Origin: Schmidtea nova
Lineage: Eukaryota
Direction of reading: 5' to 3'
Assembly (NCBI GenBank): GCA_044892505.1
Contig: CM097883.1
Coordinates: forward strand, 38,502,001 to 38,566,000
DNA length: 64,000 nt
Shown: piece after piece, positions 18,701-47,339 of the stretch
Layout of the letters: every line of letters starts with the position of its first letter
How positions within the stretch are numbered: the stretch's first letter is position 1
Position numbers and translations under genes: made by a program
Notes under the pieces: model-generated
Database searches by the model: none
Seen by the model: the letters and a program-made list of their open reading frames with translations, nothing else
What the model was told of the DNA's origin: nothing

Positions 18701-20070
18701 AATTTATAACTTACTAATCAACTGTCTGACTCCAATGCGTGCTTTATTAATCAATAAAATAAAAATTAACAATAAGAACTTTTATTGATATCACAACTGG
18801 TTTCACAATTTACACTGGTACAACCAATTAATAATATGAGACAATTATACAGTGCTTTATATGATACGTTTGTGAAGAATAACACTCGTGTATAATATCC
18901 GTCTAGCAATCACTAGCTACTGATTTATATTTGAAAATGGGTAACCAACTAATTGCTTTCTTTGCTTTGACTTGAAATTTGACCCAACAAACTTTTCTCA
19001 ATAAATCTCTCACAATTGTTTTCGCAACAAATTCCTGAATAAATTTCACTCAATAAATTCTCAATAAATTTCTCTCAATCATATTCTCAATCGATTTCTC
19101 AATAAATTTCTCTATAAATTTCTCTCGATAACACTTTTCTCAATAATATTTCTAATACTCTTTCCTCACACAAATTTTGTAATACCACTCGAATTTTAAT
19201 TCAACTGCGATGCTTTTTTTATAGCGCGTCAAAGTTTGCGGCACTTGAAACAAATTTGTTTTTATACTTTGCTTTTCGCCTTCTTCCACAGCTCTCGTCT
19301 TATCTCTGACAACTGTCGAAATATGCCTTGCTTTCCACTCTGTTGTTCCGACTTTTTCTCCTACCATTCCGATATCTCTGATAGGCTGTCAAAATATAAT
19401 TTTCTACCGGTTTTTTGTTTTTCGATTTCGGGATTCCTTTTGCCTTTGTACTTTTTAATTAGTGTTGGATCCACCATTTGGTCCACATTTAATATAAAAA
19501 ATAATAATAACAAGAAATAAATAAGAATAAATTAAATTAATATAATTACGAGAAGTTTCAGAAAGGATCAATTAAAAAGATAATAAAGAATATTAATTTT
19601 CTATAAAAATTTAGAAGAAAGTAAATAGGAAATGTAAAAGTGTTAAAGAAACAATGATATTTAATTGTATTTAAGGCAAAATAAAGAAATAATAAAGAAA
19701 AAGAATTACAGAATATTAAAAAGCAAAAACAACAAATTATTAGTAATTTAAAGCAAATCAATCGATTTGATTTTTAATGTAATTTATTTTTTGTGCTGAT
19801 CGGATGATCAGCTTCAAGCTGATTGGTCAGTGATCTGATCTGATCAGTATATATACTGATCCAGATTCAGATATTTTTAATGCATAAATTTTTTTCAGTG
19901 ACAAAAATTTTCTTTGTATTTGGTGAGAAGCTAATAGGTATGAGTATTTTTGTTTTATTGAATTTATAAATTTTATGATTATCTGTCATTGACCATTGTA
20001 GTTAATTGTTAATAAAATATTTTAAGATATATGATTTTTAAATTTTTGTCGAGTATAGAACTAAGCCAAG

Positions 20071-20355
20071 CTTCTTCCACTGTGAAATCAGTGGAAGGAG
20101 ATGACTCTATTTATATATATGATTTATCTTTTATTGAGCTTCTTCCATCGTGTAAGCGGTGGAAGGAGGCAACAGTATCAGTTTATATTAACAACTAACA
20201 AGTATAATTTTAGAAGTAATTATTGGGTCGAGCTTCTTCCACTGTGAAATCAGTGGAAGGAGGCAAATATATATTATCTATATACCGTATTTATAGTATA
20301 AAATTACGTATGATTTAAGGGGCTCCGTTCACCGTGCAATCGGGAACATGGAGGC
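20071..20355 (+). repeat. Four dispersed hairpin repeats in the LTR (also 44946-45230)
   Basis: CTTCTTCCACTG-TGAAAT-CAGTGGAAGGAG at 20071 and 20233; variant at 20139; degenerate copy at 20323. Confidence 0.85.
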
Positions 20356-21084
20356 ATACTGTGCCGAGTAGAAACGACTGCTCCGTACAGTTAGGCCGTC
20401 CGACCGGTGTGAAGCGCCGAGACGAGGGTAGGAATTTTATTTTTGATTTCTAACCTTATTTTTCACTGGATAGTATAGCCAGTTGAAGTTTTATTTTATA
20501 ATCGATTTAAATTTTTTGAGTTTATAGTTAAGTTGAGTTTTGATTTTAGTTTGAGACAGATATAGCTGTGATTTTATTAATCTGATTTTATATTGGAATT
20601 CTCCGAATGTTAATCTATATTTTTTGATTGTCACATCTGGGGTTTGTGGGCATAGAGCGGCAGATACACGTTTAAGAATTTGTACAAAATATAATTTTAA
20701 TAACAACATAAAAATCGATAACTCTAATAACGTAGTGATCTACTACGCAAGTAACATAGCAGCAATAGGCTATAGGTTCAAACATTCCACATAAATAATT
20801 AAATATAATTGCTTATCCTGAACCCTGTACATAGGGCAGTGGATCTTAGTTTATTTTAATAATTTTCTTATCCTGACTGCTGTATATAGCACAGGCGTAA
20901 CTGAATAAAATGCATTATGAAATAAATGTATCTGATCGCTGTACATAGCGACAGTGTTGAAAGCGTAATAGGTAAATCATTTTCTTTTCCTAAATTAACA
21001 ATTACCAATTGTCAAAAGCATGAGAATCGTTCAGATCAAGACGGTCAATTTCATGTGAATAAACCAATTTTGAATTTTAGAAAA

Positions 21085-21675
21085 ATGTCAGCCAACACAG
21101 CAACCAATCAAGCCGAATTAGACAAAACATGGAGGATAATTCGCAGCCTCGAAAAGGAAATGCTGCGAAAATCAGAGAGAATAAAAGAAGCCGATGGCAT
21201 AATCTCCAACCTAAAGAAAAGCTGGTTCAGTCCAGAACAAATGAAAACACAAATTACAAAAACTCAACGCTCACAGCGAGCTAACAGCGAATTGCAAATG
21301 GAATTAGACGCGACGAAGATGGAATTAAAGAAATGCCTAAAATCTGTAACGGCATCGTATCTAACTCAGGAGCTCAGCCAGCTCATTCGACCAATCACTT
21401 ACCAGCATTGGGCTGACGAAAAGGCGGGATGTACAAAGGGAACAAACACCGAGGAACCATCTCAGGTTCAAGCAACAACAATAGCCAGTACACCAAATAA
21501 CTCGATAAATCCAGAAGTCAAGAAGAAAAGGAAGAGCAAGATGGGAGCACGTCAGCGTCGCTGGAAGAAACAAGTTCTTCAGCAATTGGCTCAACAATCC
21601 AAAGAAATTCCAGAAATTGATTTGACCATGAATTTTGCAATATCAGATGAAGACATTACTAAATACTTTGAATAG
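21085..21675 (+). CDS. LTR-encoded ORF (196 aa from ATG 21085; track ORF from 20926): coiled coil, basic KKKRKSKMGARQRRWKK motif, acidic tail
   Basis: Open frame kept in both LTRs; ATG 21085 preceded by TTTTGAATTTTAG|AAAA. Confidence 0.6.
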   Translation: MSANTATNQAELDKTWRIIRSLEKEMLRKSERIKEADGIISNLKKSWFSPEQMKTQITKTQRSQRANSELQMELDATKMELKKCLKSVTASYLTQELSQLIRPITYQHWADEKAGCTKGTNTEEPSQVQATTIASTPNNSINPEVKKKRKSKMGARQRRWKKQVLQQLAQQSKEIPEIDLTMNFAISDEDITKYFE

Positions 21676-22290
21676 GAATTTTGTGATTTAGCTGTTTTCG
21701 CGTATTAAATAATTTTTGTTTTGTATTTATTTTATTGTAAAGTATAGAAAATAATGTGATTTATTAAAAATTTTAAAATAATTTAAAGAAAAATATAGAT
21801 TAAATTAAACTATACATTAGAATCAACAATAGGATTAACCTAAATCTAATAAACAATAGAAACATTAAAGAGATAATATATTGTAATTGATTAAAGATTA
21901 CTTGTTGACATTGTAAAGAAGGGGGCTGAAAGAAAAGTTGAGAGTTGAAAGATATTGTAAAGAAAGGGGGCTAAAGAAACATTGAAATGAAAGATAATGG
22001 ATGCGGATAGATTAAAGTTAAAGCGTAAGTCCTTCTATCGGCAGCGAGACGAACCCGTGAACATAAATAGGGAGTAGTTTTAGCAATAGAGCTCACCTGC
22101 CCATCATTGTTCAAACACCTTGCACATTTCCAACTCGATTATTACAGGGAAATGATCGAGGGTGCTCGTGTGATATGTAAGCATTTTATGTGAGGTTTTG
22201 GATGGAGGAATCCCTAGAGCGTTTAAAAATAATTATTAGTTTAATTTACTGTTTTTGTTTTAACCCAATCCGAAACCAACAACATAAATT

Positions 22291-22308
22291 TGGGGGCTCA
22301 GCCGGGAT
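22291..22308 (+). promoter_or_regulatory. Primer-binding site, tRNA-Pro-like
   Basis: TGGGGGCTCAGCCGGGAT matches the MLV-type tRNA-Pro PBS TGGGGGCTCGTCCGGGAT at 16/18 positions; it lies 9 nt downstream of the LTR end. Confidence 0.85.
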
Positions 22309-22520
22309 CAAATTGGTTTTTGTGCGGAAAATTGAATCCAACAATAACAAGGAGTTTTAAAGTACCCCTCAGCCGGGATCAAATTGGTTTTTGTGCGGAA
22401 AATTGAATCCAACAATAACAAGGAGTTTTAAAGTACCCCTCAGCCGGGATGAAAATGGTTTTTTGTGCGAAAAATTGAATCCAATAATAACCAGGAGTTT
22501 TAAAGTGCCCCTCAACCGAA
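22297..22520 (+). repeat. Three 71-72-bp tandem units beginning with the distal 12 nt of the PBS
   Basis: CTCAGCCGGGAT at 22297, 22368 and 22439; degenerate CTCAACCG at 22511. Confidence 0.9.
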
Positions 22521-22821
22521 AATGTAATTGATTTTTGTATAAAAGTGAAAACAATATCAACAGAGAATTTTGAAAAACAATTATTGAATAAATATAACAA
22601 CAGACGATTAATAATTGATATTAAAATAAAATAAATAAACATAAATAAATATGTCGGGACGACAATTTGATGAAGCAGGGAGAGGTTTAACATCAGAAAA
22701 CGAAATGTACCACTACTTTTGACCGACACAAATCAAACAAATAGAGAAACAAGATATTGAAATTTTTATTTTTTATACCAAATAAAACAGCAAACATATT
22801 AACAATATCAATTATTTAGCA

Positions 22822-23283
22822 ATGAACGATAAATTAAAAGAAATAGAAGAATTCTTAAACACGGAAAACAAAACATACGAGGAATTATGCGAGAAAATAA
22901 GTCGAATAAGAGAATCCGGATTCACAGAACCCATGACACAAACCGAAGAGACAACAGAGCTGATAAAAATAATGGAAAGAGTAGACAAAATAGATATAAC
23001 AACTAGATACAAGTGGTACCGAACGAGATTAGAAAATGCTGATGTAAACATAAAATGTAGACAGTTAGAACAACAATTAACTCCAACATACAACAAGTGG
23101 ACGATACAAGGAACTGAGACAGCTAAGAAATTTAAACTGTGTTACATATGTCGAGAAAGGGAGAATAAAATCATGTTTTTACCATGTGGACATTTCCGGT
23201 TTTGTGGAATCTGTGCAGCCAATTGCGACAAATGCCCGATGTGCAATCTTGAAATAGGCGAAAGAATTACTGTGTATTTATAA
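22822..23283 (+). CDS. Accessory RING-finger protein with C-terminal IAP/MDM2-type C3HC4 RING (153 aa, no BIR)
   Basis: CYICRERENKIMFLPCGHFRFCGICAANCDKCPMC..I..RITVYL at the extreme C-terminus parallels the XIAP/cIAP RING. Confidence 0.85.
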   Translation: MNDKLKEIEEFLNTENKTYEELCEKISRIRESGFTEPMTQTEETTELIKIMERVDKIDITTRYKWYRTRLENADVNIKCRQLEQQLTPTYNKWTIQGTETAKKFKLCYICRERENKIMFLPCGHFRFCGICAANCDKCPMCNLEIGERITVYL

Positions 23284-23911
23284 TAAATAAATGATGAATT
23301 TAGTAATATTATTCGTAATAAATAAAATATGAGAAAGGATAATGAGAATTAATATGATAATTCATAATGAGAATTAATATGAGAATTCATAAGGAGAATT
23401 AAAAAATGAAAATTGATAATGAGATTAATAATGAGAATTTAAAATGAGAGTTGATAATGGCAATGACAGAAATCATGATAACAATTGATATTTATAAATA
23501 ATTTTTGAGCTGCTCACGAGTAGTCCGTTAAGCACCCATTGGGAGGAACCAACTGATCAACTTACCCGAGATGTATAGAAAGGGGCCCATCGCGGAAATT
23601 GGAAAGCTTTTGTGATGTGACTGATCACCACATCTTGCATTAGTAGACCAATGCGATCTTTTTGTATGTTTTGGTTGGGGTGAAAGGTAGGAACCATCTA
23701 ATGAGGTTTAAGTACACACAAAAAATACCAATAAAAAAGAGAGAATAGAACACTGATCAGTGGAAGTCGAAAGAACATTAAGTGAATAAGTAGAATGAAA
23801 GTTAATGTGATAACTCTCATAACAATAGAGATAATTCAGCTGAATGATAACTAGCGAAGTGGATAATTGCGGTTAACCGGTTAAAGAGATTAGTTAAATA
23901 CCTTGTATAAA

Positions 23912-24232
23912 AAGGGTCAAGGGCAAATAAGCCATATTAGTTACTCTGAAAGAAGGGTCAAGGGCAAATAAGCCATATTAGTTACTCTGAAAGAAGGGTC
24001 AAGGGCCAACGAGCCGTATTAGTTAATTACTCTGAAAGAAGGGTCAAGGGCCAACGAGCCGTATTAGTTAATTACTCTGAAAGAAGGGTCAAGGGCCAAC
24101 GAGCCGTATTAGTTAATTACTCTGAAAGAAGGGTCAAGGGCCAACGAGCCGTATTAGTCAATTACTCTGAAAGAAGGGTCAAGGGCCAACGAGCCATATT
24201 AGTTAGTTACTCTGAAAGAAGGGTCAATGGCA
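23912..24232 (+). repeat. Tandem array, 2x41 bp plus 5x45 bp plus a partial unit, core AAGGGTCAAGGGC
   Basis: Unit starts at 23912, 23953, 23994, 24039, 24084, 24129, 24174, 24219. Confidence 0.92.
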
Positions 24233-24380
24233 ACATAAGAATTTGAACCTATGATTGCAATAGCGATAGCAACACAAGGAATGTGAACCTGTGATTGCGA
24301 TTATGGATAGCAACATAAGGAATGTGAACCTATGATTGCGATAGTTGATAGCAACGTAAGGAATATGAACCTAGAGTTGT
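24232..24380 (+). repeat. About 40-bp degenerate tandem repeat (GAATGTGAACCTATGATTGC..GATAGCAAC) x3-4
   Basis: Repeated GAAT(G/A/T)TGAACCT motif directly after the previous array. Confidence 0.75.
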
Positions 24381-24487
24381 AGTCGTCGACGACGTGAGAA
24401 TAGTGAGCATTAGAGTTTGAGTAATAAAAGTAAAGATGATTAAATAAACTAGAGATTCAGTATGCATACAAGTAGAAATAAGAATAG

Positions 24488-24720
24488 GAGAAATTAGAGT
24501 TGACCGGAAAAACCGGTAGAAATAGTGAAAATAATGAATAATGATGAGAAATTAGAGATGACTGGAAAAATTGATGGAAATAGTGAAAAAAATGAATAAT
24601 GATGAGAAATTAGAGATGACTGGAAAAATTGATAGAAATAGTGAGAATAATGAATAATGATGAGAAATTAGAGATGACTGGAAAATTTGATAGGAATAGT
24701 GAGAATAGTGAGTAATGATG
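24488..24720 (+). repeat. 58-bp tandem repeat x4
   Basis: GAGAAATTAGAG at 24488, 24546, 24604, 24662. Confidence 0.85.
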
Positions 24721-25152
24721 ATATAATGAATAGTGATAAAATGATAATTGAGTCAGGAGAACTCAAGGGAATTAAAGCGTTTGAGCGACAAATTAAATTG
24801 GGAGACTGAGGGAAAAGTAATGAATTTATTTGATAACGATAGATAATTATTACGACCATATAGATAATTGTTACCAGTGAATAGATAATTTAAATAGACT
24901 TAAATAAAGGGGAAACCGGGAATGGGGAAACAATGGAAACCCAATAATGAGGAATAAAAGCGCAACGATAACAATGATGTATCGTTGAAGTGACTTTTTA
25001 ATTTAGATATACGGAACAGAACAAGTCAAACAACCAACCAATCAATCAGAATACGATAACAGAGAAACAGAAAAATTGATAAATTAAAGAAAAGTAAACC
25101 GAGATCAAGAGCAGTTAAAAATCAAGAAGTTAATAATTCACAAAGAAATAAA

Positions 25153-34100: not shown

Positions 34101-37100
34101 GAGAGACGTATTCGTTAGACTCAGAGAATGGAAATTAAAACTAAAACCATCAAAATGCGATTGGGCAAAAGAAAAAGTAACTTTCTTAGGACACATAGTG
34201 TCGGCACAAGGGAAAGAACCCGATCCCAGAAATATTGAAAAGGTTAAAGAATGTCCAGCACCAAAAACGATAACACAAATACAAGAATTCCTTGGTTTAT
34301 GTGGATATTACAGGAAATTTATAAAGGATTATGCAGGAATTGCAAAACCCATGCAAGAATTAGTAAAGAAAGATGTAACGTTTATATGGGGACAAGAACA
34401 ACAAACAGCGTTTAAAACGCTAAGAGATAAATTGATAACCGCACCAATATTAGTTCATCCAGACTTCAAGAAACCATTTTTACTAGCAACAGACGCAAGT
34501 GGATACGCTGCAGGAGCAGTACTAGGACAATATGATGATGAAGGGAAAGAAAGAGTAATCGGATATTACAGTAGAACGTTTAAAAAGCATGAGAAGAATT
34601 ATTCAGTAACAGAAAGAGAAGCATTAGCAATAATATTGGCTATAAAACACTTCAAATATTTATTATGGGGACATGTAATATGTATAACTACAGACCATCA
34701 ACCGCTTGTATGGTTAGGACAGCATAAAGAAACATCCAGTAGACTAATGAGATGGGCAATGCAACTGCAAGAGTACTCACCAGATATAAAATTTAAATCA
34801 GGAAGAGCAAATTCAAACGCAGACTGTATGTCAAGATTAACTTTCCCAGAATTAATAGACCCAGAGGTACAAAGAATATGCGTATTGATAGCGGAAGATT
34901 TAGATTTCAGCGAATTAAAGAAGGACCAACAAGAAGACAAAGAATTAGGACTAATAATAGAATTTATGAAATCACGGAATTTAGACGTATTCAAAGATAA
35001 TGAGGAATTAACAGAACATGTGAAAAAATATCAGCATCGGTATATAATAGAGAAAGGATGGCTGTTAATACAAGATGGAGAAAAGAGGTTAATGTGCTTA
35101 CCAGAAAATAGACGAAAGGAAATAATAACGCAATATCACGATGGAAAACTCGGAGGACATATGTCAAGCCAGAAAACAATCAATCGTATGAGACAGAAAT
35201 ACCATTGGCCGACAATGGAAGAAGATGTTAAAGAATGGATAAAAAACTGTCTAACATGTGCAACTAGAAAAGATAGCGGTAAGAAATGGAAAAATCCTCT
35301 AAAACCTATGCCAATACCAGCAGAACCAATGACAACCATCGCGATGGATGTAATAGGACCGTTACCAGAAAGCTTGAACGGAAACCAATACATACTAGTA
35401 ATAACAGATTATTTAACGAAATTTCCAGAAGCATTCGCAATGGAAGACCAAAAAGCAAAAACAGTAGCAAAAATCTTGGTAGAAGAGATATGTTGTCGAT
35501 ACGGAACGCCTAAACAAATATTGACAGACCAAGGAACGAATTTCATGAGCGAAGTATTCGACGAAGTAACAAATTATTTTAGAATAGCGAAATTAAGAAC
35601 GTCACCCTATCACCCACAAACTAATGGACAAACAGAACGATTTAACGGCACATTGATTAGAATGCTATCGAATTACGTATGTAAACATCAGACTGATTGG
35701 GATGAGTATATAAAACTATGTCTAATGGCTTATAGAATGTCGATACATGCAGCCACAAAATTAAGCCCATTCAAACTAATGTATGGAAGAGAATGTAACA
35801 TACCTATTGATTTAGAATACCAACCACCATTGTCTCAATACATGGAAGAAGACGACTATGTTACCAAGTTCAAAGAGAGAATGCAGGAAATATGGAAGAC
35901 AGCGGAACTAAATATAAAATTTTACCAAGAAAGTTATAAAGATTTGCACGACCAAAAGAAAAACGTGAAGACAAACGATTTAAAACCAGGAGACTGGGTA
36001 ATGATTGAAACCCCAGAAATAATACCAGGAACAGTAAAGAAATTACAAAGACCGGGAAAAGGCCCGTATGAAGTGATATACAGAAACGAAGATAATGTCA
36101 AAGTAAAACTTGTAAATCGACCATTAGTACGACCAATATACGTGAATACATGTAGATGCAAGAAAGTGCCAAAAACAATAACAATGATACCGGAAGAGAG
36201 AATCATGACGAGATCACAAACCATCAGAATAAATATGCTCAGAGCGGAAGAAATTAACACAACTAGTCAAGTAGACAGTGAGAAAATAGATGTTGACAAA
36301 GAGATCGTACGAAAAGCCAAAGAAATAAACGAAAGATGGGAAATCAGACAAGAAAAAGACGTATTATGGGATATACGACAAATAATCAGTGATTACGCAC
36401 GAGGATGCCCAACCAAACCAATTATAATAGAATTACTAAAGAAAATACCAGAGATACTCGTATTACAAGATACAGGAGGTGCAACTGCACTACACAATGC
36501 CATAAGTTGGGGTAAAACGGAAAAGGTAAAAGAATTCTTGAAAATAGCAAAAGAAACGAATCAAAATCTAGACATTGTAAATCGAGAATTAGAAACGCCA
36601 ATGATGACAGCAACCCTAAGCTTAGCAGATAAAGAAATAGTAGATATGCTGATTAACGCAGAATTCAACTGGACAGCTCGAGATAGAAGAGGAAACACAG
36701 TTTTAAACCATGCAATAATGAGTGAAAATCAAATGATACTAAAACATATAACAACCAACCTCACATGGGAAATCGAAGAATTAATCAAAGGAGAAATTAT
36801 GAAAGAAGCGATTCGGAAGGGAAACACTAAAACAATATGGAAACTAATACAATGGAAATGGCCGAATAATAAAACATGGGTATTAGATATAAACAAAGAA
36901 TTTAGCGAAGGACAGAATGCACTATTGAGATACTTGTTAGAGTTTACGTGCGATCAGAGAACGATGTTAGCACTAATAAATAGAGGAAAAATAAATATTA
37001 GTAAAAACGAAGAGGAATATAAACTAGAAGTTGAAAAGAAAGCTTTATTCAGGAAAATTTGGGTATGGTGTCAAAAACAAATACGCAAAGACATAAGCTA

Positions 37101-40100
37101 CAAAAATATAAATGATTTCCAAGAAAAGTATAAGATAATAATAAAGGAATACAAGAAGCTAGTGGAGATATTAAACGATCCAGAAAAATTTAATCAAGCG
37201 ATAAATCAGAAAGAAGAAGAAAGTAAAAGGATACTCACACCATTGTTCAACGCGAAGATAGATTACCAAGAAAGATTGGATGCAATACACCAAAAAGCAA
37301 AGGAACTATTACCAGAATTCAAAAATACTAAATACGCCTTGGAAATACTTGGCGCGATAGTAGAGAAAGTACACGCGTACGCGAAAGGAATATATAATGG
37401 AAACGATATAATAATTATAAAAAGAGAAATGCCAGTTGCGTTCTTATTAACTAAAGAAAGAATAATGCCGATTCATAGAGCATTGAGAGCAGGAAAAGAC
37501 GGTAAAGTAATCGAAATCGCAAGAGTAATGCATCAATGTGGATGTGATATGAATATGATAGACGAAAAAGGAGACACCCTCATGGTATACGCAGCAAGAG
37601 CAAAAACAAAAGTCAAAGTATTAGAAGAATTATATAAAGCAGGCGCAGGATTAATCGGAAAAACTGTCAAAGACAACTCAATATTAGACGTGACATTATT
37701 AGGTCCAAACTGGGAAATGTTGAATTTCATTAAAACGATAACAAACCAGGAAGAGATAGACTATTTAACAGAAACCGTAAAAGGACCAAGCGTATTGACA
37801 ATGATGCAAAACATCAAATTGACAGAAGAAGTATTAAACTGGAAAATACCAAATACAAACAAACCAGCATTTAAAGTTAACAAGTTTATGGAGAATAATC
37901 GAAATTGGTGTATCCAAAGCGCACTAATAACTTATATATGGCCCGAAATTGTAGAAATTTTCATGAGAAGAGAAGATCTGAGATTTACAAACAAGCCCAA
38001 AGAAACGGAAAAGATGGTCAAATGGAAAGAATTGATGAAAACACACCTTCAAAGTTGGATAAAAGCCAAGAAAGAAATTATACAGTATCAATTAGACAAC
38101 AAAAAGATACCCGAAGATATAGAATTCCAAGAATTTGAAGCAAGTAACTTAACATCATTATATTATGCAAAACTAATAGAAACCAGTAATGTCGAGGACG
38201 ACATTTTTAACGAGCCAGGGAGAGATAATAATACTGACAATGATGATGACGATGAAGAAAACAATGACGACGAGAGAAATAAAGACGATGATGATGATGA
38301 AAACAGTCACGGAAATCCAGATAACCACGAACAAACCAATAAAGAAGACGAGAACCAAGAGAGAAATACAAAGAAACAAGAATCCAAAGAACCAAGAGAA
38401 GACAACCCTAAAAATAATCATGAAAAGAAAGGAACAAGTTACAGAAGGAATCCATTATTCAGACCAGAAGTATTAATGTTCGCAATAATCATAACACTTA
38501 TGGGACAATGTGAAGCAACGAAACAAGAGATATCAGTAGAAATGGAAGTACCAATACAAAAAGCATCAACACAGATAATGAATTCAAAGGATATTGAACA
38601 AGTATGTTGGGTCAAAGAGAACGAAATTCTCGGAGATAACAACCTATTACGATGTATAATACCAAACCCCGAGCGAAAAACTATAATAATAGACGAAATG
38701 GACATGGAAACATGGTACAGAATATGTACTATCAGAAAACCCAAGGACGAAAAATCACACAAAACAGTTACATGCCAAGTATACAAGACACCCAAAGTTC
38801 GATATGAGTTCGCCAATGGAATAGACCTTCCAGGACCATTTTATTTTAAAATAACAAGAGAACCAGCATCAAGAAAAGTCTTACAACAACTAAGAACCAA
38901 GATAACAACACCAAGTATAAGGAATACAACGGATAAACCAGAACCAAAAAGACGAACGAAACAAACCACAAGAGTAATCTATAATTCCAAGTTGTTATGT
39001 ATAGCACTTATTATGACAATACTGAAGCGATTGGAAGAAGGGATAGAAATGGATACAATGACATTAATAGACATGGAAGAGACACGAATGACAAATCAAA
39101 AATGTTGGGTTAGAAACGATGAAAAATTAGAATTAAAGGAATCAAGAGAAATTCAAAAATTGGAAGCGAGTAAAACGAACAAAGTAATCAAGATAATAAA
39201 GATAAAAACAGACAGAATTCATAAACTATGTTTATTGGAAAAAGAGAGAAACAAGAAAGGAATAACCAATTGTAAAACATTCCAAGCAGGGAAAATAATA
39301 ACGTTTGCAAGAAAAATGGGGAAAAGAAACAAACAAAATTTCCAGAAATTAACCATAACGTTAGAAATAACGGGAATAGAACAAAATGTAAACGGAGTAT
39401 GCTGGAGAAAATACGAGAAAGAAACGAATAAACATAAATCATCACAATGTCAAACAATCAGAGGAACAACTGCAGTGCAAATAAAAAGCTTAGAAAGAAA
39501 TCAAACGTATGAAATATGCCTAGTAAAGGAAAATGATCAAATAACGAAAGAAGATTTAGAATGCAGAATATACAAAGCACCGAACAGAGTAAAAACCATT
39601 AAAGCAATACGAAAGAATAAAAGACAACAAAAACCGAAGCATACCACTACCGAAAGTCAAACAGAACCAGAGAGGAAAACCTCAGCAACACTTATACTTT
39701 GGAAACTAGATGACAAAACAGTAGAAATATGTTGGACAATGATCAAGAAATATGAAGAAAGACAACCACAACAATGCGAAAAGATGAACAAAGAAGAGGA
39801 GATCAGAATTCAGAACCTACAATTGGACAAACAATACGAAATATGCGCAATAGAAAAGGCAGATAAATTTGGAAACCAGCAAGAGAAATGTGGAAACTAC
39901 TATACACCGACAAATACAACGATCAAAGGAAGAATCAAGAAACTAACTTTCGGAGAATTGAATCAAACAACGAAACAAATGGAAAACGAGGAAACAATAA
40001 TAGATTCTTATGCACAATGGAAACCAGAAAAAGTAATCCAGGAAGTCAAAAGGAAACAACAAGAACGACAACAATTGGAACTCAAATTGAAAGGACAATA

Positions 40101-40407
40101 TGGACCAATGATCAACCAAAGCAAATTCACCCAAATTAATATTAACAAGCAAAGAAGAGAACTAATTGGAGTAGGAATACTGGCAGTATGCGTACCAGTA
40201 ATAATAATACTATCAATAATATGGTTATGGGACATAATAAAAAAGAAACCAACCAGACAATGGCCAGATATAAAGATTATGAATTGTAAAATCAAGATAC
40301 CAGAAGAAGTGAAAAAAGAATTCCAAAGAAGAACCAAAGGCAAAGAATTTTGGAAGCGAATAGAAGACGAGGAGCGACACGATGAAAAAGCAGTGATGAT
40401 AGTATAG
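25153..40407 (+). CDS. Giant gag-accessory-env-pol-accessory polyprotein, 5,084 aa uninterrupted (track start is TTG; first ATG 25519)
   Basis: A 15.2-kb stop-free frame containing all domains listed below. Confidence 0.95.
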   Translation: MRSRAVSATIEKVDNSQRNKSKQRATSATKKTNPKGSKSRRVIVEKSKVENSKFSKTNESETEESASETYDNYNNTEASDNESINTEEVEAEIDNNSNETNNEHTSETRGNESKTTQDSGIEMNEHKEEIKDKFTGEPFNGDASKLETFLKEFGIFVEMCKWKPETIRSRIQLYLKDSALDLYLEAKNSDDQLDSWEKIKNFFQQTFGINKVLNEAFTEFSMRKQKVNESNAAYASELKKLAKLAFNQNSPMSPELMAAIFVGGLRRPDIRAQVGCQGCKTIDEALEIANRFELHMIGSEGRIYLAMDTTQNEQAIKINNHIPNSQQLNRPPPQRRNEGNKIQNYGNQNNYSTQGQTKQCQTCGKLGHWQQECFANLNCKKCGRKGHAENRCYQRSCYNCGQSGHMAMNCQQQNNQQRNWSNNGNRQNYTNQQSNGNRQNFENQQSNYNQNKSTTKEIHLLQEVQRLTELINNTPRGNQQTNQQQMNMMRKVESENERLNRESQARHAQEWARIQREDEQKRQERERQPLRINMMRAANQTRDNKEDIEPETNQIKPNLVDEENQKEIIQENEEVIKQKRMLVVMPNDHVFQFEYDEKEEVGVLINKVNKTIPGTTKLPREAILQTEDDAAIKLKPTDIWKDLGVPRNKMKVTVIQEIEENNDEEKSKPVTKVKSRALKIFEERIKQRKAMEIEKRRGQIEESENSDKKEEIPPKNVPDKVEQTAHINMLRNLTREFSDVESDSDVSSLAGDMLKEPEKEDNKIEVAKMPENVQIKEDEIQKLLDNALEVIYNEEFIDKKRYRKFIRAVFRTNYKERLQSREIEILSGYVVKLLDEPLHEYIILIEINECSPRIWIKSPCTNEIYRWVEDRLGSSYKNKFIYSGNELVRRATHLVETGIWPGEITTLSICDNKKEENLQEIAKEANMCFEMRIKPQLVERKERILRENLNSLIEQIIQQIDKNREELTKTEYEKLKQCIENIRDTSHTRHSSYKTWKVIAKMGKAMFKRGEIGDLKIKVKLPNEDTKEIEVIADCTIEELVDVINETLLQREKEDELEDDIIIKYNEHVLGDHDERRLYKIGIWDNYQTIHVIRMDDTSRETPKDEKRRQERRREVMYKLRQIIEIYRRWQIQPEGENVLGELNFNERRLTPVEKHWDVKEKCWKAKGGIYEEEFRPEMEDKYEPEIRRVCMVTRKVMPTDLDGPETAAIWLETQRRKADELIELLRGNVQGKRRTIKGLAEFFVAGGEDIISLRKVAKAVTEYKRVNEWCPEQLDNVIKKWRNQENSQEPPQKIHLRIIYPDREKEELWVRLTEKIRDVKKRLKYEPPFHLQHQGRSLENDMEIWITPAQLELANTLTVDAIAGQPLKLKEKRVRESEDTQNLKKTMQITPGTSARQYETTSIKIQERTRPQPYDTEEILTDSDDMLEELAKLTKEKGNNIFERVQELPTTSQAINTQDEVEQEIEIEEVNEISEEEARGANTENERFTQEMEKWWEQRNNEPRDVTEETGRETRLIETGTTMDRRPRGRPKTDPANVINKTKEERRQEKWELCLKKLNKIAEAKDQEITQKCQGEGWISKTLMEILAIIDPELKKWWRINEISDKAKALHSAIAPILPELIKEKTKSSHLDWQGTTTLIKRLTEDAENDNKYVIAIAYTIYNLLTLSRGNPKSMAIEKHIKNTASIIAKEIEPYVISKGGWETFVKTNQRNSQAKNMKKKFEEILGELEKEKSGTGSGKSSLNLNSIIMMILIWLISVEGATAFEVFDCDQMALGEKYSLRGTEQCKDATPTELKVLHKEQIYHIYQEADLIKTTVNECKIYKTRFAFYCGHRHYSAIVMPGTEREAIMLQGEDCNKLFKHGEVETRDRIKIRGKAGVILQQTYYVAGAITGGEGYCQGATYPIFGVPATNMVVIDTYTVELKAYEAYFDPATGEMKTLSMCKIEASTCQTGMSTLTYRAKANECQLQLLKEAEFDEVQGKIFQEEDDDEVARGKRLQETVKGEKPFTTKVQEKEVRMRETPTVLVTSNANIGMRFVKGKPALKCGVSMLETNYPGIYVSRQAAPNAKPKIDTTDIKLHVYLNNKLDFLFHKGQASMEKIYYDLINNDCILNREILKTKLAVAITNPDSAMPLLPLNEGHFGRVVGEVMYVYICQKTQANLATTTRIRQGQCTNELEIEYKGKIRYVQPVTRIINPVSFEPNPFNCSNAYGPLYQKPDGNWVMFPSRSEVQPPREFELMQLSKGRKFSNIDVINGGIYSAKDLEAARQNILFPARREAVLSSIVTITGGTSYQGGPNYELLLSPAHFRKATENMMKAMWGRFLIFGQMMAGILGVILIIQIIRVIITQMLACFDIYKREKKVNWKLIAGFLPFLAKTMVLHGHSKDIHRIKRLLKILAKMKGTDEDVGRKFKKIMTDEQARLQLKSERKGLWERIRGDKTQDDSSDDDDNNDDCEGGQRYRNQAPQYSDKNPTEAWKCHAPPPTMYQEPLQVSGHRAMQMMPMTTLYPIIPEDYKLRRCRSMDPQDDSLTIAVMSSNTGPVLTTTIEINGKEIEAMIDTGANISAIDIKWIPQEQRQEIERTNVHVIACSKEIVEVAGRWWVKIRHQNIEIETYVAVIPALSVPCIIGTDLMPTLLKEIIIDLGTMRLKDRTGKICAMEAKVISSKQMIIPARKEKICYVKIDPTIEGDMVFEPSKRFEKRKSLQMARGLVNINNNGEIPVNVINFDEEDKIIYENERLGKLTPMIDIEIPTKRGEKAEEPIWNIDSKLLNEDQKNQLEKLLTEYKDIFAASDLDLGTCDVTVHTIPLLDETPIALRPYKLAEAQKAVAEAEVQKMLDAEVIEPSCSPWQFPVVMVKKKDGTQRFCIDYRRLNAVTKRDTYPLPDINEMLLTLQGAAYFTSLDLKSGYWQIKVKEEDKEKTAFTIGRDLYQFRKMPFGLTNAPASFQRCMNFVTHGIKQCMVYIDDLLIYSSTFEQHIQDMRDVFVRLREWKLKLKPSKCDWAKEKVTFLGHIVSAQGKEPDPRNIEKVKECPAPKTITQIQEFLGLCGYYRKFIKDYAGIAKPMQELVKKDVTFIWGQEQQTAFKTLRDKLITAPILVHPDFKKPFLLATDASGYAAGAVLGQYDDEGKERVIGYYSRTFKKHEKNYSVTEREALAIILAIKHFKYLLWGHVICITTDHQPLVWLGQHKETSSRLMRWAMQLQEYSPDIKFKSGRANSNADCMSRLTFPELIDPEVQRICVLIAEDLDFSELKKDQQEDKELGLIIEFMKSRNLDVFKDNEELTEHVKKYQHRYIIEKGWLLIQDGEKRLMCLPENRRKEIITQYHDGKLGGHMSSQKTINRMRQKYHWPTMEEDVKEWIKNCLTCATRKDSGKKWKNPLKPMPIPAEPMTTIAMDVIGPLPESLNGNQYILVITDYLTKFPEAFAMEDQKAKTVAKILVEEICCRYGTPKQILTDQGTNFMSEVFDEVTNYFRIAKLRTSPYHPQTNGQTERFNGTLIRMLSNYVCKHQTDWDEYIKLCLMAYRMSIHAATKLSPFKLMYGRECNIPIDLEYQPPLSQYMEEDDYVTKFKERMQEIWKTAELNIKFYQESYKDLHDQKKNVKTNDLKPGDWVMIETPEIIPGTVKKLQRPGKGPYEVIYRNEDNVKVKLVNRPLVRPIYVNTCRCKKVPKTITMIPEERIMTRSQTIRINMLRAEEINTTSQVDSEKIDVDKEIVRKAKEINERWEIRQEKDVLWDIRQIISDYARGCPTKPIIIELLKKIPEILVLQDTGGATALHNAISWGKTEKVKEFLKIAKETNQNLDIVNRELETPMMTATLSLADKEIVDMLINAEFNWTARDRRGNTVLNHAIMSENQMILKHITTNLTWEIEELIKGEIMKEAIRKGNTKTIWKLIQWKWPNNKTWVLDINKEFSEGQNALLRYLLEFTCDQRTMLALINRGKINISKNEEEYKLEVEKKALFRKIWVWCQKQIRKDISYKNINDFQEKYKIIIKEYKKLVEILNDPEKFNQAINQKEEESKRILTPLFNAKIDYQERLDAIHQKAKELLPEFKNTKYALEILGAIVEKVHAYAKGIYNGNDIIIIKREMPVAFLLTKERIMPIHRALRAGKDGKVIEIARVMHQCGCDMNMIDEKGDTLMVYAARAKTKVKVLEELYKAGAGLIGKTVKDNSILDVTLLGPNWEMLNFIKTITNQEEIDYLTETVKGPSVLTMMQNIKLTEEVLNWKIPNTNKPAFKVNKFMENNRNWCIQSALITYIWPEIVEIFMRREDLRFTNKPKETEKMVKWKELMKTHLQSWIKAKKEIIQYQLDNKKIPEDIEFQEFEASNLTSLYYAKLIETSNVEDDIFNEPGRDNNTDNDDDDEENNDDERNKDDDDDENSHGNPDNHEQTNKEDENQERNTKKQESKEPREDNPKNNHEKKGTSYRRNPLFRPEVLMFAIIITLMGQCEATKQEISVEMEVPIQKASTQIMNSKDIEQVCWVKENEILGDNNLLRCIIPNPERKTIIIDEMDMETWYRICTIRKPKDEKSHKTVTCQVYKTPKVRYEFANGIDLPGPFYFKITREPASRKVLQQLRTKITTPSIRNTTDKPEPKRRTKQTTRVIYNSKLLCIALIMTILKRLEEGIEMDTMTLIDMEETRMTNQKCWVRNDEKLELKESREIQKLEASKTNKVIKIIKIKTDRIHKLCLLEKERNKKGITNCKTFQAGKIITFARKMGKRNKQNFQKLTITLEITGIEQNVNGVCWRKYEKETNKHKSSQCQTIRGTTAVQIKSLERNQTYEICLVKENDQITKEDLECRIYKAPNRVKTIKAIRKNKRQQKPKHTTTESQTEPERKTSATLILWKLDDKTVEICWTMIKKYEERQPQQCEKMNKEEEIRIQNLQLDKQYEICAIEKADKFGNQQEKCGNYYTPTNTTIKGRIKKLTFGELNQTTKQMENEETIIDSYAQWKPEKVIQEVKRKQQERQQLELKLKGQYGPMINQSKFTQININKQRRELIGVGILAVCVPVIIILSIIWLWDIIKKKPTRQWPDIKIMNCKIKIPEEVKKEFQRRTKGKEFWKRIEDEERHDEKAVMIV
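25552..26382 (+). other. Gag: capsid domain plus three CCHC zinc knuckles (26230-26382)
   Basis: F.G....L..FL..F / MHR-like QKVNESNAAYASELKKLA / FVGGL; knuckles CQTCGKLGHWQQEC, CKKCGRKGHAENRC, CYNCGQSGHMAMNC. Confidence 0.93.
26887..29241 (+). other. Three to four ubiquitin-like domains (26887-27120, 27670-27885 weaker, 28192-28434, 29032-29241)
   Basis: e.g. LKIKVKLPNEDTKEIEVIADCTIEELVDVI..IIIKYNEHVL..RLYKIGIWDNYQTIHVIR follows the ubiquitin beta-grasp pattern. None ends in di-Gly. Confidence 0.6.
29728..29751 (+). other. AT-hook motif (RRPRGRPK)
   Basis: Canonical PRGRP core flanked by basic residues. Confidence 0.6.
29788..30279 (+). other. Bcl-2-like helical domain
   Basis: IEPYVISKGGWETFVK closely parallels BH2 of Bcl-xL (LEPWIQENGGWDTFVE), preceded by a ~150-aa helical region. 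BH1 (NWGR) is not recognisable. Confidence 0.65.
30388..32304 (+). other. Env-like fusion glycoprotein, chuvirus/Monjiviricetes G-like (class III-like): signal 30388-30447, ectodomain from 30448, TM 32110-32217
   Basis: IIMMILIWLISVEGATA/FEVFDC, FYCGHRHYS, GEVMYVYICQ, CTNELEI..YVQPVTRII, GGIYSAKDLEAARQNILFP and MWGRFLIFG..AGILGVILII follow the motif and cysteine order I recognise from chuviral glycoproteins. Confidence 0.8.
32779..33060 (+). other. Aspartic protease
   Basis: IEAMIDTGANISAI (D at 32830) and CIIGTDL. Confidence 0.93.
33646..34836 (+). other. Reverse transcriptase (YIDD 34045-34056) and RNase H (34477-34836)
   Basis: RFCIDYRRLN, LDLKSGYWQI, MPFGLTNAPASFQR, YIDD; RNase H TDASG, EREALA, TDHQPL, NADCMSR. 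Confidence 0.97.
35089..36170 (+). other. Integrase (HHCC, DDE, GPY)
   Basis: H..GGH..CLTC; D35347, D35527, E35635 (D-35-E spacing); GPYEV at 36061. Confidence 0.96.
36463..37698 (+). other. Two clusters of ankyrin repeats (36463-36750 and 37459-37698)
   Basis: DTGGATALHNAISWGK, RDRRGNTVLNHAI, MPIHRALRAGK, IDEKGDTLMVYAA..VLEELYKAGA. Confidence 0.85.
38470..40230 (+). other. C-terminal type-I membrane module: signal-like peptide 38470-38517, four Cys-containing FN3-like repeats, TM 40162-40230
   Basis: VLMFAIIITLMGQCEA; repeats CW..C..I..L...Y.IC...C (about 38593, 39094, 39388, 39721); LIGVGILAVCVPVIIILSIIWLW followed by a basic tail. Confidence 0.65.
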
Positions 40408-40529
40408 AGGGTGGGATATGACTGTAAATAATATTGTAAATTACAAAGCATTACCGTATATAGTATGGGTATTAGTATTATAGAGTATATAAAAAGAGAA
40501 AAGAGAAAAATAATAATGTATTTTAGAAA

Positions 40530-40865
40530 ATGAATGTACAAGGAGAAACAACCGAAATGACTTTGACTATGCGATGGAAAGCACAATGTGAAACGTTAGT
40601 TCGATCAATTAATGCACTACAGAATCAATTGGTAGAGAAGCAAAATATATTAGCAGATTGTTACAACAATATCTTTGAGCAGTTACATAAAATAGAAGAG
40701 CAACAGAGAATAATAACAGAACTAACCAGAGAGAATCAAAGATTGAGACAAACGATGGAAATAAATCAACTAACAAGAAGAGATGAATCAGAAGGTCAAT
40801 GGCTAGATTGGGTAATAAATGGATTAGAGAATGGTATAGAACCAGATTCAACGAGCGAACCATAG
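40530..40865 (+). CDS. Accessory small coiled-coil protein (111 aa)
   Basis: ATG preceded by TATTTTAG|AAA; heptad-like composition. Confidence 0.6.
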   Translation: MNVQGETTEMTLTMRWKAQCETLVRSINALQNQLVEKQNILADCYNNIFEQLHKIEEQQRIITELTRENQRLRQTMEINQLTRRDESEGQWLDWVINGLENGIEPDSTSEP

Positions 40866-40961
40866 TCAAATTGTAGCGGAAAATTGTATATATGTAAAAA
40901 TAAAACTCTAGAAAAATCAAAAACAAAGAACAAATCAATGTATGTATATATTATTGTAGAA

Positions 40962-42296
40962 ATGGATAAAGAGGAACGAGCAGTCGAGATTTTGAGAGCA
41001 GCAAACAGAAATTGGAATAAGAGATTTGTATGTGGATATTGTAATAATTTATTACGGAAACCAAAGCAAACCGCCTGTGGATGTAGATTATGCACTAGAT
41101 GTGTACAAATGTTAGAGTTAAAAGGAATAACAGAATGTTCAGAATGTAAAGAAGGACAAATAGTATTAGACGAAACGAGACCAGATAGAGCAACTCAGAG
41201 AGAAATCATGAGCATATTAATTGAATGTATAAATCCACCGTGCATATGGCAAGGACAAATCAGCGAAATTGAAAATCATATAGAAAATTGTGAAGAAAAG
41301 AGAAGCGAATGTGAAAAGTGTAAAGAAACGATAATTTTAAAAGACAAAGAGAAACACAGAGATGAATGCAAAGAGGAAGAAATCGCATGTGAATATTGCG
41401 AAATTCGAGAAACAAGGAGAAAAATTGAAGAGGAGCACATCAATATAAAAGAAGAGAAAATATGCGAACAGTATGTAGGAGTGTTCCCAAACAAATGTGA
41501 AATTACCGAAGAAGTGAAATTACGAGAACATTGGGAAAAGTGTACAGAAATACCAAGAGAATGTCCTTACAACAGATATGGATGCAAAGAAAAGAAGTCT
41601 CAACAAACGATGAAACAACATTTAGAAACAGAAGCAATCAATCATATTGAAATGACAGACAGAACAATTCAGAAATTAGAAAAGGAAGTAGAATCTCATA
41701 AAATAATGATGAACCTATTATTAGAAACGAGAGAACAGGTTGAATTAACCCGAGGAAGGATGGAAAAGAAAATAATATATAACAAGTTAATATATAACAA
41801 GTTAATACAAGAAATTGATGAGAAAAAAGATTTACCAATAGCACCTTATGTATGGAAATTAACGGATTTCCGAAATAAATTGGAAGATGCACGAAGCTGC
41901 AAGAAAACTGCGGTACTAAGCCCACCATTTTACTTATGGAAAAACGGGGCTAAAGTGAGATTGAAAGTATATCCAAACGGAGATGGGAAAAGTAATGGAA
42001 AACACGTATCGATATTTTTTGCGTTTTGCAAAGGAGAATATGACGATTTAATCGATTGGCCGATAGGAGTAGGAGTAATGATAAAAATCAGGGGTTTAAA
42101 CGAAACCATAGAAAAGAGATTCACGACAGAAAAAGGAGCAGTTACCAGTAACAGACCAACAGAAGAATGTGGATTAGCAAGTGGAGAGCCACACTTTGTA
42201 TTACAAAGCAAGATATGGGGATTATTGTATGAGGACACCTTATACATAGAAATGGAAAGGAACGAGAAGGCAGATAGAAAAGGATGGTTGGCGTAG
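40962..42296 (+). CDS. Captured full-length TRAF-like protein (RING, TRAF Zn fingers, coiled coil, MATH); 444 aa from ATG 40962
   Basis: CGYC..KPKQTACGCRLCTRC..CSEC; CINPPCIWQG..ENHIENC; ECPYNRYGC; YVWKLTDF..LSPPFY..VYPNGDG..HVSIFF..KGEYDDLIDWP. Confidence 0.92.
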   Translation: MDKEERAVEILRAANRNWNKRFVCGYCNNLLRKPKQTACGCRLCTRCVQMLELKGITECSECKEGQIVLDETRPDRATQREIMSILIECINPPCIWQGQISEIENHIENCEEKRSECEKCKETIILKDKEKHRDECKEEEIACEYCEIRETRRKIEEEHINIKEEKICEQYVGVFPNKCEITEEVKLREHWEKCTEIPRECPYNRYGCKEKKSQQTMKQHLETEAINHIEMTDRTIQKLEKEVESHKIMMNLLLETREQVELTRGRMEKKIIYNKLIYNKLIQEIDEKKDLPIAPYVWKLTDFRNKLEDARSCKKTAVLSPPFYLWKNGAKVRLKVYPNGDGKSNGKHVSIFFAFCKGEYDDLIDWPIGVGVMIKIRGLNETIEKRFTTEKGAVTSNRPTEECGLASGEPHFVLQSKIWGLLYEDTLYIEMERNEKADRKGWLA

Positions 42297-42401
42297 CAAG
42301 AGAAAATGATCGTGTAAATAAACTGTACAAAACAATATAAAATGATAAATAAACAAAAATAATAAAAGTAGTTTGATTGAAAATATTTGTAATTATAGAA
42401 A

Positions 42402-43505
42402 ATGGGAAACGTCGAAATCAGTTTACAAGAAGTAACCGAACATCAAGATGAAGTTATTTGTGAGCATTTAGAACAAATTAAAAGTTGGATCCACGCATAT
42501 TACCACAAACAAAAAGAAGTAGAAAGACAAGCTGAACAAATAAAAGAAGACAAAAGATTAAAGCGATTAAGTCAAGATAAAATAGACGAATTATATGAAT
42601 TATTGGAGAAACAAAAAGAATATTATAAAAAGATGATGAAAGATCGACGAGAAGAAAGAGAGCGAGAACGAACAGAAATGGAACGGAAAATGTACTCCAT
42701 TACCGAGCAAGCAAGATATTGGAAAAAAGAAGCGAAAGAATCTTATACGAAAGCAAGAGAAATAATCGAAAGAACGGCGTACAGCGATGATTGGAAATTA
42801 TTTGAAGAAATCGATAAATTAAAAGAGGAATTAGAACAGAAAACCTATCAGGAAATATCGAACAAAAAATGGAATAAAAAGAGACAACAATTCATCAGAG
42901 AGCAAGCAGGAAAAATTAAACAACTTATGCACCAGATTGAAAGGTCGGAAAGAGAATTATATTTCAGTAAACAACAATCAGATGCAAACCTCAGAGCAGG
43001 GATGCAGAAAGAGGAAGATATGAAGCGCGATATTAATGGTTATCAAGGAGTAATCACTCAAAAGAAGATAGAGTTAAAGAAAACTAAAGAAAGATTAGAA
43101 GAAGCAAAACAAAGCTATGAAGAAAATTTATTAAAATTAGAAGAAGCAAAACAAAGCTATGAGGAAAATTTATTAAATCTAACCAAAGAAAATGAAGAGT
43201 GGAAACAAAAATTGACACAAAAATTAACACCACCAAAAGAGACAGATATCACCAAAGCAGTAATAAAAATGATGGAAGAGGAAGAGAAAAACAATAAAAT
43301 AACAGAATTAGAAAAACAGATCGAAGCGTTAACAGAACAATCAAATTATTTAGAATATCTGTTAGACGAAGAAATTCAATTATCACACTTCTATCGAGAC
43401 GAAGTAACAATGTGGAGAAACACGATAGTGTGGTTACCACCCCCTACAAACCAAGTGGAACCTCAAGATGAAGGTTTTCACGAACCCAACGAGTCGTTAG
43501 TTTAA
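42402..43505 (+). CDS. Accessory long coiled-coil protein (367 aa) with a tandem 14-aa duplication LEEAKQSYEENLLK (42 bp, 43095 and 43137)
   Basis: Long E/K/Q-rich open frame; ATG preceded by AATTATAG|AAA. Confidence 0.75.
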   Translation: MGNVEISLQEVTEHQDEVICEHLEQIKSWIHAYYHKQKEVERQAEQIKEDKRLKRLSQDKIDELYELLEKQKEYYKKMMKDRREERERERTEMERKMYSITEQARYWKKEAKESYTKAREIIERTAYSDDWKLFEEIDKLKEELEQKTYQEISNKKWNKKRQQFIREQAGKIKQLMHQIERSERELYFSKQQSDANLRAGMQKEEDMKRDINGYQGVITQKKIELKKTKERLEEAKQSYEENLLKLEEAKQSYEENLLNLTKENEEWKQKLTQKLTPPKETDITKAVIKMMEEEEKNNKITELEKQIEALTEQSNYLEYLLDEEIQLSHFYRDEVTMWRNTIVWLPPPTNQVEPQDEGFHEPNESLV

Positions 43506-43578
43506 AGAAGCGAAAAATTCGTTGTAAATATCTGTAAAATAACAATGTCAAACTGTATTGACAAATTTGTAAAGTGAA

Positions 43579-44143
43579 ATGAAGAAGCTCGCAATACTGA
43601 TAATCCTAAACGTAATCGAGATCACCCAACAAAGAGAAGACCGTCCGATATCAAAAGAAAACCTACAAGTCTTACCCGATAAAATCTATAAAGAAATAGA
43701 TAATCTATTTAAAAGAAACAGCTAAAGAAATATCTCAAATTCAATTGTCAACAGCACCTAACCCAGTATCAACGCAACAAACCCTGTGCAAAATCAATAA
43801 CAAATTAGAGAAGATTCGAAAAACCCTAAAAGAAAGTAAAGAAACTATAAAGAATTTACATCGAGCAGAAATTCAATACCAAGAAAGATGGATCGTTGCG
43901 ATTATAATCGTATTAACAATTAGTACAACAACCTGCGCAATTACCATTCTCATCGCAGTATATAGAATAAAGATCCTAAAACAAAAACAATCGATCATCA
44001 ATCAAACAACAGCATACGATGACAATGCCCGAAGACAAATGAGAAATCAGTTCAAAAGAATACGAACCCAATACGAGTTACCAGCAATTCCACAGAACCA
44101 GTCCAATCCAGTGCGAGTTATGAACTATTTGTATAAACCATAA
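43579..44143 (+). CDS. Small type-I membrane protein, split by a 1-nt frameshift in the A4 run at 43711-43714
   Basis: ATG 43579 gives MKKLAILIILNVIEITQQ..LFK. Removing one A joins it to ETAKEISQIQL and the track ORF 43745-44143, which has TM WIVAIIIVLTISTTTCAITILIAVY. Confidence 0.55.
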
Positions 44144-44337
44144 ATACTTGACAGAATATTTGATTAACAACTATCTGAATTCTCTTTATATTTTCTTCGT
44201 GATTATGAGTAGATAAAATCACCTTATGTGAATCTTTATGCTTATGTATCAAACGCAAAATATTTTTTTATGAATGTTGAGTATAAGTAATAGTGTATAA
44301 TTAATTGCGGGACGCAATTTTAGGGGTCCCCGAGTGA

Positions 44338-47156: not shown

Positions 47157-47339
47157 TTAGTAATGACCTTTTTTGGTTATTTTTTAGATTTCCAAGTTTT
47201 ACTGCCATCTTGTTTCTCGATTTTTGTTCTTCAAACCTCCTTTTTCGTGTTTCTAAACATCATATTATTTACCCTGTTCCTTCCCCCCAATCATTTTATT
47301 TATTTGTGACAATATTTAGTTTATTATTTAGGTATCCTC

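Follow-up and report, generated by a model that had tools for sequence, protein, structure and literature searches.

Conserved acceptor sites at gene starts of a giant gypsy-type element of Schmidtea nova suggest expression by splicing of an LTR-derived leader

A giant gypsy-type long terminal repeat (LTR) element occupies a large part of the 64,000-nt stretch of the Schmidtea nova genome analysed here (referred to as the window; GCA_044892505.1, contig CM097883.1, positions 38,502,001–38,566,000). Its features are listed in Table 1. A preliminary description of this DNA, made from the sequence alone, had recognised five accessory open reading frames (ORFs), all of which are present; however, two of them lie upstream of the polyprotein, the LTR-borne ORF (which is inside the LTR itself) and the RING ORF, and three, encoding the 111-aa, TRAF-like and 367-aa proteins, lie downstream and are referred to as the 3' cassette. 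It had also proposed that a short LTR leader is cis-spliced to acceptors ahead of these ORFs or, alternatively, that they form an operon resolved by host spliced-leader (SL) trans-splicing. Our analysis revealed that this acceptor/donor design is real and conserved, and identified one insertion of a sister family in which a splice joint is preserved in DNA.

A 701-nt probe yielded 551 candidates in the same genome, the best 40 of which show 98–100% identity. Further families were collected by family, protein and pattern searches of the same genome together with retrieved stretches. In the polyprotein, a fusion domain (PF24664; residues 1898–2252, E 1e-70 in Pfam) is located in frame between gag and pol. 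No Pfam match was obtained for the 367-aa ORF, which appears coiled-coil-like by eye.

Table 1. Features of the element and of its target site in the window. The caret marks an exon end.
Feature	Position	Strand	Remarks
Giant gypsy-type LTR element	19463–47156	+	27.7 kb in total, 22.1 kb internal
Target-site duplication TTAG	19459–19462 and 47157–47160		4 bp
5' LTR	19463–22281	+	2819 bp; TG...CA ends; 2 mismatches to the 3' LTR
Predicted promoter	19822–19861	+	ATTGG (reverse CCAAT) and TATA-containing palindrome
Predicted leader exon	19878–19937	+	5' end placed about 30 nt past TATA
Donor-like TG^GTGAGA	19923–19928	+	Subfamily-specific; 2/20 other copies
Predicted major splice donor AG^GTATGA, then T-rich tract	19938–19957	+	Predicted from conservation
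AATAAA, candidate LTR poly(A) signal	20011–20016	+	Putative role
LTR-borne ORF (196 aa) with its acceptor	21075–21675	+	AG end 21080; ATG 21085
LTR block	22013–22218	+	Conserved across families (72–79% identity)
Primer-binding-site-like sequence	22291–22308	+	Common to families D and F
RING-finger ORF (153 aa; PF13920) with acceptor	22815–23283	+	AG end 22819; ORF from 22822
Sixth acceptor, then 512 nt without ATG	24979–25518	+	AG end 25006; counterparts in families F and D
Polyprotein (4962 aa)	25519–40407	+	CCHC gag, mononegavirus-type fusion protein, protease, reverse transcriptase (RT), RNase H (RH), integrase (IN), ankyrin
Spacer (122 nt), acceptor, 111-aa ORF	40408–40865	+	AG end 40526; ORF from 40530
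TGTA-rich spacer (96 nt), acceptor, TRAF-like ORF (zf-TRAF, MATH)	40866–42296	+	AG end 40959; ORF from 40962
TGTA-rich spacer (105 nt), acceptor, 367-aa ORF	42297–43505	+	AG end 42398; ORF from 42402
3' LTR	44338–47156	+	Repeats promoter, donor (44813) and LTR ORF (45960–46550)

The five AG-before-ATG sites of the preliminary description were all recovered, with gaps to the ATG of 4, 2, 3, 2 and 3 nt from 5' to 3'. We defined the acceptor motif post hoc as a YAG located 1–6 nt ahead of an ATG and preceded by at least two T residues in 4 nt. It is found at all five accessory starts, whereas 29 (4.9%) of the element's remaining 586 sense ATGs match it, as do 5 of 108 ATGs in non-coding sequence. 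Shuffle rates per site range from 0.02 to 0.07, and their product is 1e-7 for a motif that was defined after the sites had been seen. Each of the three 3' sites is kept in 20/20 other insertions of the same family, and the starts identified in other families of the genome, some of which are homologous to each other, carry the motif in 14 of 15 cases. About 5% of ATGs fit this post hoc motif, as would be expected of a chance pattern in AT-rich DNA; such an origin is hardly credible given the 14/15 starts elsewhere, the conservation at 27–38% protein identity and the exactly spliced copy described below. In-frame ATGs located further upstream were also considered as starts; that of the LTR ORF (20926) is present in 0/19 copies and that of the TRAF ORF (40938) is absent from 4/20, and the ATGs nearer the acceptors are therefore the likely starts.

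The same arrangement is found in family D, which contains seven 3' ORFs, including a TRAF and an IAP (BIR) gene; a YAG lies 1–5 nt ahead of the ATG in six of them and 17 nt ahead in the seventh. Family D orthologues of the RING, 111-aa, TRAF and 367-aa ORFs share 27–37% protein identity with those of the element (37% between the 111-aa ORF and family D ORF1), and all four keep a YAG 0–2 nt from the ATG, two of them in the form CAG. Relatives of the LTR ORF show 58–100% identity to the L016 query and approximately 34–38% to the ORF of the element; a TTYAG five bases upstream of the ATG is kept in these relatives, with variation in the intervening bases and C/T exchange at Y. A spliceosomal 3' site tolerates the exchange of TAG and CAG, whereas a stop codon does not. 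The two alternate at orthologous starts whose proteins share 27–38% identity. The motif exceeds chance and is conserved across families with TAG/CAG exchange.

These findings also bear on the possibility that the 3' genes are expressed without splicing, by reinitiation or internal entry on a long RNA, in which case TAG-A(n)-ATG would represent an upstream stop followed by an A-rich context. The spacers are indeed strongly A-rich, and a 3-nt gap makes the TAG an in-frame stop, as is the case at 2/5 sites here and in 18/19 LTR-ORF copies. This explanation is nonetheless very improbable, because several orthologous sites carry CAG, which is not a stop (D1, D_CC and the E/F LTR ORFs), gaps of 0–6 nt disrupt the frame, and the family D junction employs such a site as an acceptor.

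The five acceptors of the preliminary description hold, but a sixth, ahead of the polyprotein, had been overlooked. The 512 nt that follow it contain no ATG, compared with 7.7 expected (1/2000 shuffles), and the AG of the corresponding family D gag acceptor is present in 10/10 loci. Given the counterparts of this acceptor in families F and D and the ATG-free stretch downstream of it, the polyprotein mRNA is likely made by splicing as well. The polyprotein frame is open and Met-free before its first ATG for 153, 174 and 176 codons in the element, L030 and L147, respectively (25060–25518; L030 6443–6964; L147 8485–9012), and a shared stop motif precedes this open frame in the element and L030. 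Near its start lies an ATT codon (25075) whose -3 and +4 positions are A and G, respectively, with a similar arrangement in families A and B, in which a conserved peptide is also found upstream of the first polyprotein ATG. Judged by eye, a non-AUG start of the polyprotein is possible.

The palindrome containing the TATA sequence, GATCAGTATATATACTGATC, is perfect and occupies the positions that had been noted (19842–19861); related palindromes occur in other LTR groups examined. Both of the donor-like words reported downstream of it are present, but only that at 19938 is conserved, AG^GTATG(A/G) with its T-rich tract being kept in 20/20 own-family 3' LTRs, whereas that at 19923 is restricted to a subfamily. 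The distance from TATA to the donor varies from 88 to 166 nt across these 20 LTRs, and the leaders are hypervariable, with 17 distinct forms among the 20 copies. In the E/F LTRs, G^GTA is found at the aligned donor site in 21/26 rows; the 26 were drawn from 29, leaving out the element itself, reversed L028 and L031 (the second LTR of L030). The family D LTRs (n = 18) have GTAAGG in 11 and GTTAGG in 7. AATAAA follows the donor at 65–80 nt in 20/20 own-family copies and is less regular in E/F. The closed upstream ORFs (uORFs) in leaders L061–L080 (18/20) comprise 3–14 codons despite sequence divergence, and no ATG precedes the donor in the family D leaders checked (11/11).

Transcription from this donor-bearing promoter would start near 19878, as judged from the distance to TATA. 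Such a start would give a repeat plus unique 5' region (R+U5) of approximately 2.4 kb that contains an intron and a gene, so that the strong-stop DNA would be of exceptional length. Genomic RNA may instead start near the conserved block at 22013–22218, which would place the promoter at 19822–19861 in the unique 3' region (U3). The spliced family D copy is compatible with either start.

That copy was found by searching for leader ends that lack the donor G next to them. The search yielded four matches in family D (L141–L144). L143 and L144 proved to be point variants only and were rejected. L141 and L142, each 1973 nt long and identical in sequence, are the two LTRs of a single family D insertion (target-site duplication CTAC); in both, the leader end GGAAT is fused to CAATG of the LTR ORF with zero microhomology; at this position L130, L135 and L139 have a segment of 3515–3546 nt that starts with GTAAG and ends with TTTCTAG. 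Both ends of the joint, the family D donor and the first acceptor, had been predicted ahead of the search. The chance of the right end hitting one of approximately 10 predicted acceptors in >20 kb is roughly 1 in 2000, the left end being fixed by the pattern. This exact donor-to-first-acceptor joint, present in both LTRs, is direct evidence that cis-splicing occurred at the first acceptor of family D, in one event. A scan of 164 loci (1.31 Mb, overlaps included) found no joint besides that of L141/L142. The spliced copy contains a second deletion of approximately 154 nt (L145 8220–8250), which extends from GTAAAT in a spacer to a CAG 39 nt beyond the predicted acceptor and, with 1 nt ambiguous, fits GT-AG boundaries; it may be either a cryptic splice or a chance event.

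Since a conserved acceptor precedes each gene and one conserved donor lies near the promoter, production of one mRNA per gene by splicing is likely. We propose, with a probability of roughly 0.62, that one LTR leader is cis-spliced to six alternative acceptors. The LTR promoter would yield a short leader ending at donor 19938, which would be joined alternatively to 21080, 22819, 25006, 40526, 40959 and 42398, the last three at a long range of 20–22 kb. TGTA clusters past the cassette stops (see below) may serve as 3'-end or 3'-untranslated-region (3'-UTR) signals and give monocistronic messages, and unspliced RNA would serve as the genome. For the 5' genes, expression by cis-splicing is highly probable; for the 3' cassette it is favoured with less assurance.

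The cis version of the splicing proposal has thus gained a donor conserved in three LTR groups and the family D joint, but several observations weigh against it. The sole junction derives from one insertion of another family and concerns the LTR-proximal acceptor. No joined copy of the element's own family was found with leader patterns (three leader types) or with a pattern built on the acceptor side of the LTR ORF; one of these leader patterns alone had a positive control, which found 51 copies of the leader end, and G is next to it in 51/51. In 11 own-family copies picked for short LTR spacing, the ten mapped joints of large internal deletions are microhomology joins and not GT-AG. The 15 listed of 32 joints at 40300–47200 in four unlabelled runs also include no GT..AG, a result that is uninformative and was not used. 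In the E/F LTRs, 5/26 lack G^GTA at the aligned donor column. The leader, previously described as non-coding, is not strictly ATG-free: short uORFs are closed in 18/20 own-family copies, open in one and missing from one, and that of the element itself is open through the donor. Furthermore, the 3' acceptors are separated from the donor by 20–22 kb in which other, nearer acceptors lie, and spacers of approximately 100 nt with TGTA clusters would also suit an operon. Finally, flatworm acceptors often serve cis- and trans-splicing alike (PMC12582326).

The cassette spacers are AT-rich (18–24% GC) and close to 100 nt in length, as had been reported, but the AATAAA also mentioned there is at chance level (15 seen versus 16.8 expected in nine cassette spacers of two families). 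TGTA, by contrast with its expected frequency of approximately 0.5, occurs 6, 3 and 4 times per 100 nt after the three cassette stops of the element, and 4, 4, 4 and 5 times per 100 nt at four family D spacers. This enrichment concerns 3/6 stops in the element and 5/8 in family D; the stops of the polyprotein, the LTR ORF and the RING ORF show none, as is also true of D1, D5 and D7, and TGTA is absent downstream of the single accessory ORFs of families A and B. TGTA may represent a CFIm or Pumilio-type motif.

Because the 3' acceptors are more than 20 kb from the donor and are preceded by TGTA-rich spacers of approximately 100 nt, host SL trans-splicing has to be considered for the cassette. 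The 5' genes would then be cis-spliced, while the cassette would form an operon, with 3'-end cleavage of each cistron and SL capping at the YAG. The spacers (95–255 nt) agree with the intergenic distances of flatworm operons, which have their peak near 100 bp in Macrostomum and were set at <=300 bp for parasites (PMC12582326, PMC8629364), and SL acceptors fit UUNYAG (PMC12582326). The enrichment of TGTA after cassette stops and its absence past the single A/B accessory ORFs also agree with an operon, and the seven tandem ORFs of family D may be more easily served if upstream cleavage spares downstream expression. On the other hand, the donor upstream is conserved and family D uses it in cis, and the presence of an unpaired donor upstream reportedly disfavours SL addition (PMC8629364, PMC5832876). 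In addition, flatworm SLs end in AUG, yet 8/19 gaps are in frame, with no frame bias; AATAAA is not enriched in the spacers; and half of the element's stops, together with D1, D5 and D7, lack TGTA enrichment. The SL version of the original proposal has thus found no positive evidence and is retained as a doubtful reading for the 3' cassette. If this unlikely case were true, the cassette would be a retroelement-borne operon, with host-derived apoptosis/ubiquitin genes (TRAF and, in family D, IAP) placed approximately 100 nt apart and resolved by host SL trans-splicing. A mobile element combining such an operon with a cis leader for its 5' genes would be built on the host SL machinery, and the presence of SL at the 3' sites would reveal a transposon operon exploiting host trans-splicing.

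Another possibility is that the cassette has, like foamy viruses, its own internal promoter and leader, with a donor near the end of the polyprotein. Families A and B contain ATTGG, TATATA, G^GTAATT and TTTTAG-ATG within approximately 400 nt past pol in 5/5 copies, TATA-like words are present in 7/9 cassette spacers (14 seen versus 8.7 expected), and foamy viruses do have an internal promoter (PMC7828637). However, our scan found a module of CCAAT, TATA and a strong donor solely in the LTR (19848/19938) and none in the polyprotein or cassette; the first spacer (122 nt) has no CCAAT, two spacers wholly lack G^GT(A/G), and promoters alone would leave the conserved YAG unexplained. We therefore regard this arrangement as improbable, and cis-splicing from the LTR donor remains the preferred explanation for the cassette. 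Families A and B are smaller, fusion-bearing elements with a single post-pol ORF (exonuclease-like by eye, without a Pfam match); their post-pol region appears to include an internal promoter and a 5'-UTR intron (L003 4514–4790; L007 4571–4847).

Several other features were observed. The primer-binding-site-like sequence presumably corresponds to tRNA-Pro. Segments 20050–20430 and 20820–20970 of the LTR intron hold repeated GC-rich hairpin-like units, and an Rfam scan of 19400–25600 detected nothing beyond the gathering score. Several own-family copies (L106–L119) share two large deletions, 27300–32685 (fusion region) and 33170–36173 (RT-RH-IN), and retain the accessory ORFs, apparently representing amplified non-autonomous derivatives. 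Outside the element, the window contains a single-exon Forkhead ORF (2585–3304, minus strand), an inverted pair of 29-nt tandem arrays (60672–61648) and a 104-nt inverted repeat flanking two short ORFs (56772–58862).

If the proposed mechanism is correct, one LTR leader and six to nine acceptors, including that of the polyprotein, would amount to regulation in the style of complex retroviruses in a gypsy-like lineage, and leader splicing would keep genomic and translated RNA apart. It would also explain the gain of cargo, for which it would suffice to insert an ORF together with a spacer and a YAG. Burro-type elements are present in thousands of copies with TRAF, IAP and RING cargo, and the exact junction coordinates given here can be checked in existing planarian RNA data. 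Knock-down of the piRNA pathway by smedwi-2 RNAi increases BURRO1 RNA (PMC8532177).

The element is probably of the Burro type. Like Burro1-4/GYPSM1 of Dugesiidae, it has an ORF1 of approximately 5000 aa (4873 and 5140 there, 4962 here), with CCHC gag, an in-frame mononegavirus-like fusion protein located between gag and pol, and the order protease, RT, RH and IN; ankyrin, MATH/TRAF and RING cargo and tandem repeats are also shared, as is BIR in the case of family D (PMC6431247). Burro/GYPSM1 elements measure >30 kb in total and up to 25 kb internally, versus 27.7 and 22.1 kb here, so that the present element is giant but does not reach 30 kb (PMC6431247). Another difference is that TRAF is here a downstream accessory ORF (PMC6431247). 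The BIR, BCL2-like and dUTPase-like motifs of Burro were found by HHpred (PMC6431247), whereas Pfam alone was used here and gave no BIR, BCL2 or dUTPase match in the element, BIR being found in family D. The available portion of the Burro account is silent on the expression of accessory ORFs (PMC6431247). Our literature search, whose reach did not include the primary Burro papers, found no account of Burro splicing or accessory-gene expression.

In foamy viruses, gag is translated from unspliced RNA. The order of signals is the same as in the element, with the major donor in the LTR ahead of the candidate poly(A) signal (PMC3694450), and core replication genes are expressed from spliced mRNA, as proposed here for the polyprotein (PMC3694450, PMC7828637); however, foamy accessory genes are driven from an internal promoter (PMC7828637). 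Complex retroviruses of the HIV-1 type use a single leader and major donor together with multiple alternative 3' splice sites for accessory genes, as proposed for the element (PMC1697824, PMC7828637). Unlike them, the present element is gypsy-like, its acceptors lie 0–6 nt from the ATG, its ORFs do not overlap, its polyprotein has an acceptor of its own, and the donor is located within the LTR, with the primer site approximately 2.3 kb downstream of it (PMC1697824, PMC7828637). Finally, the SL-resolved operons of flatworms share with the cassette co-oriented genes approximately 100 nt apart and UUNYAG-like acceptors, but they consist of host genes, whereas the element has a conserved cis donor upstream (PMC12582326, PMC8629364, PMC5832876).

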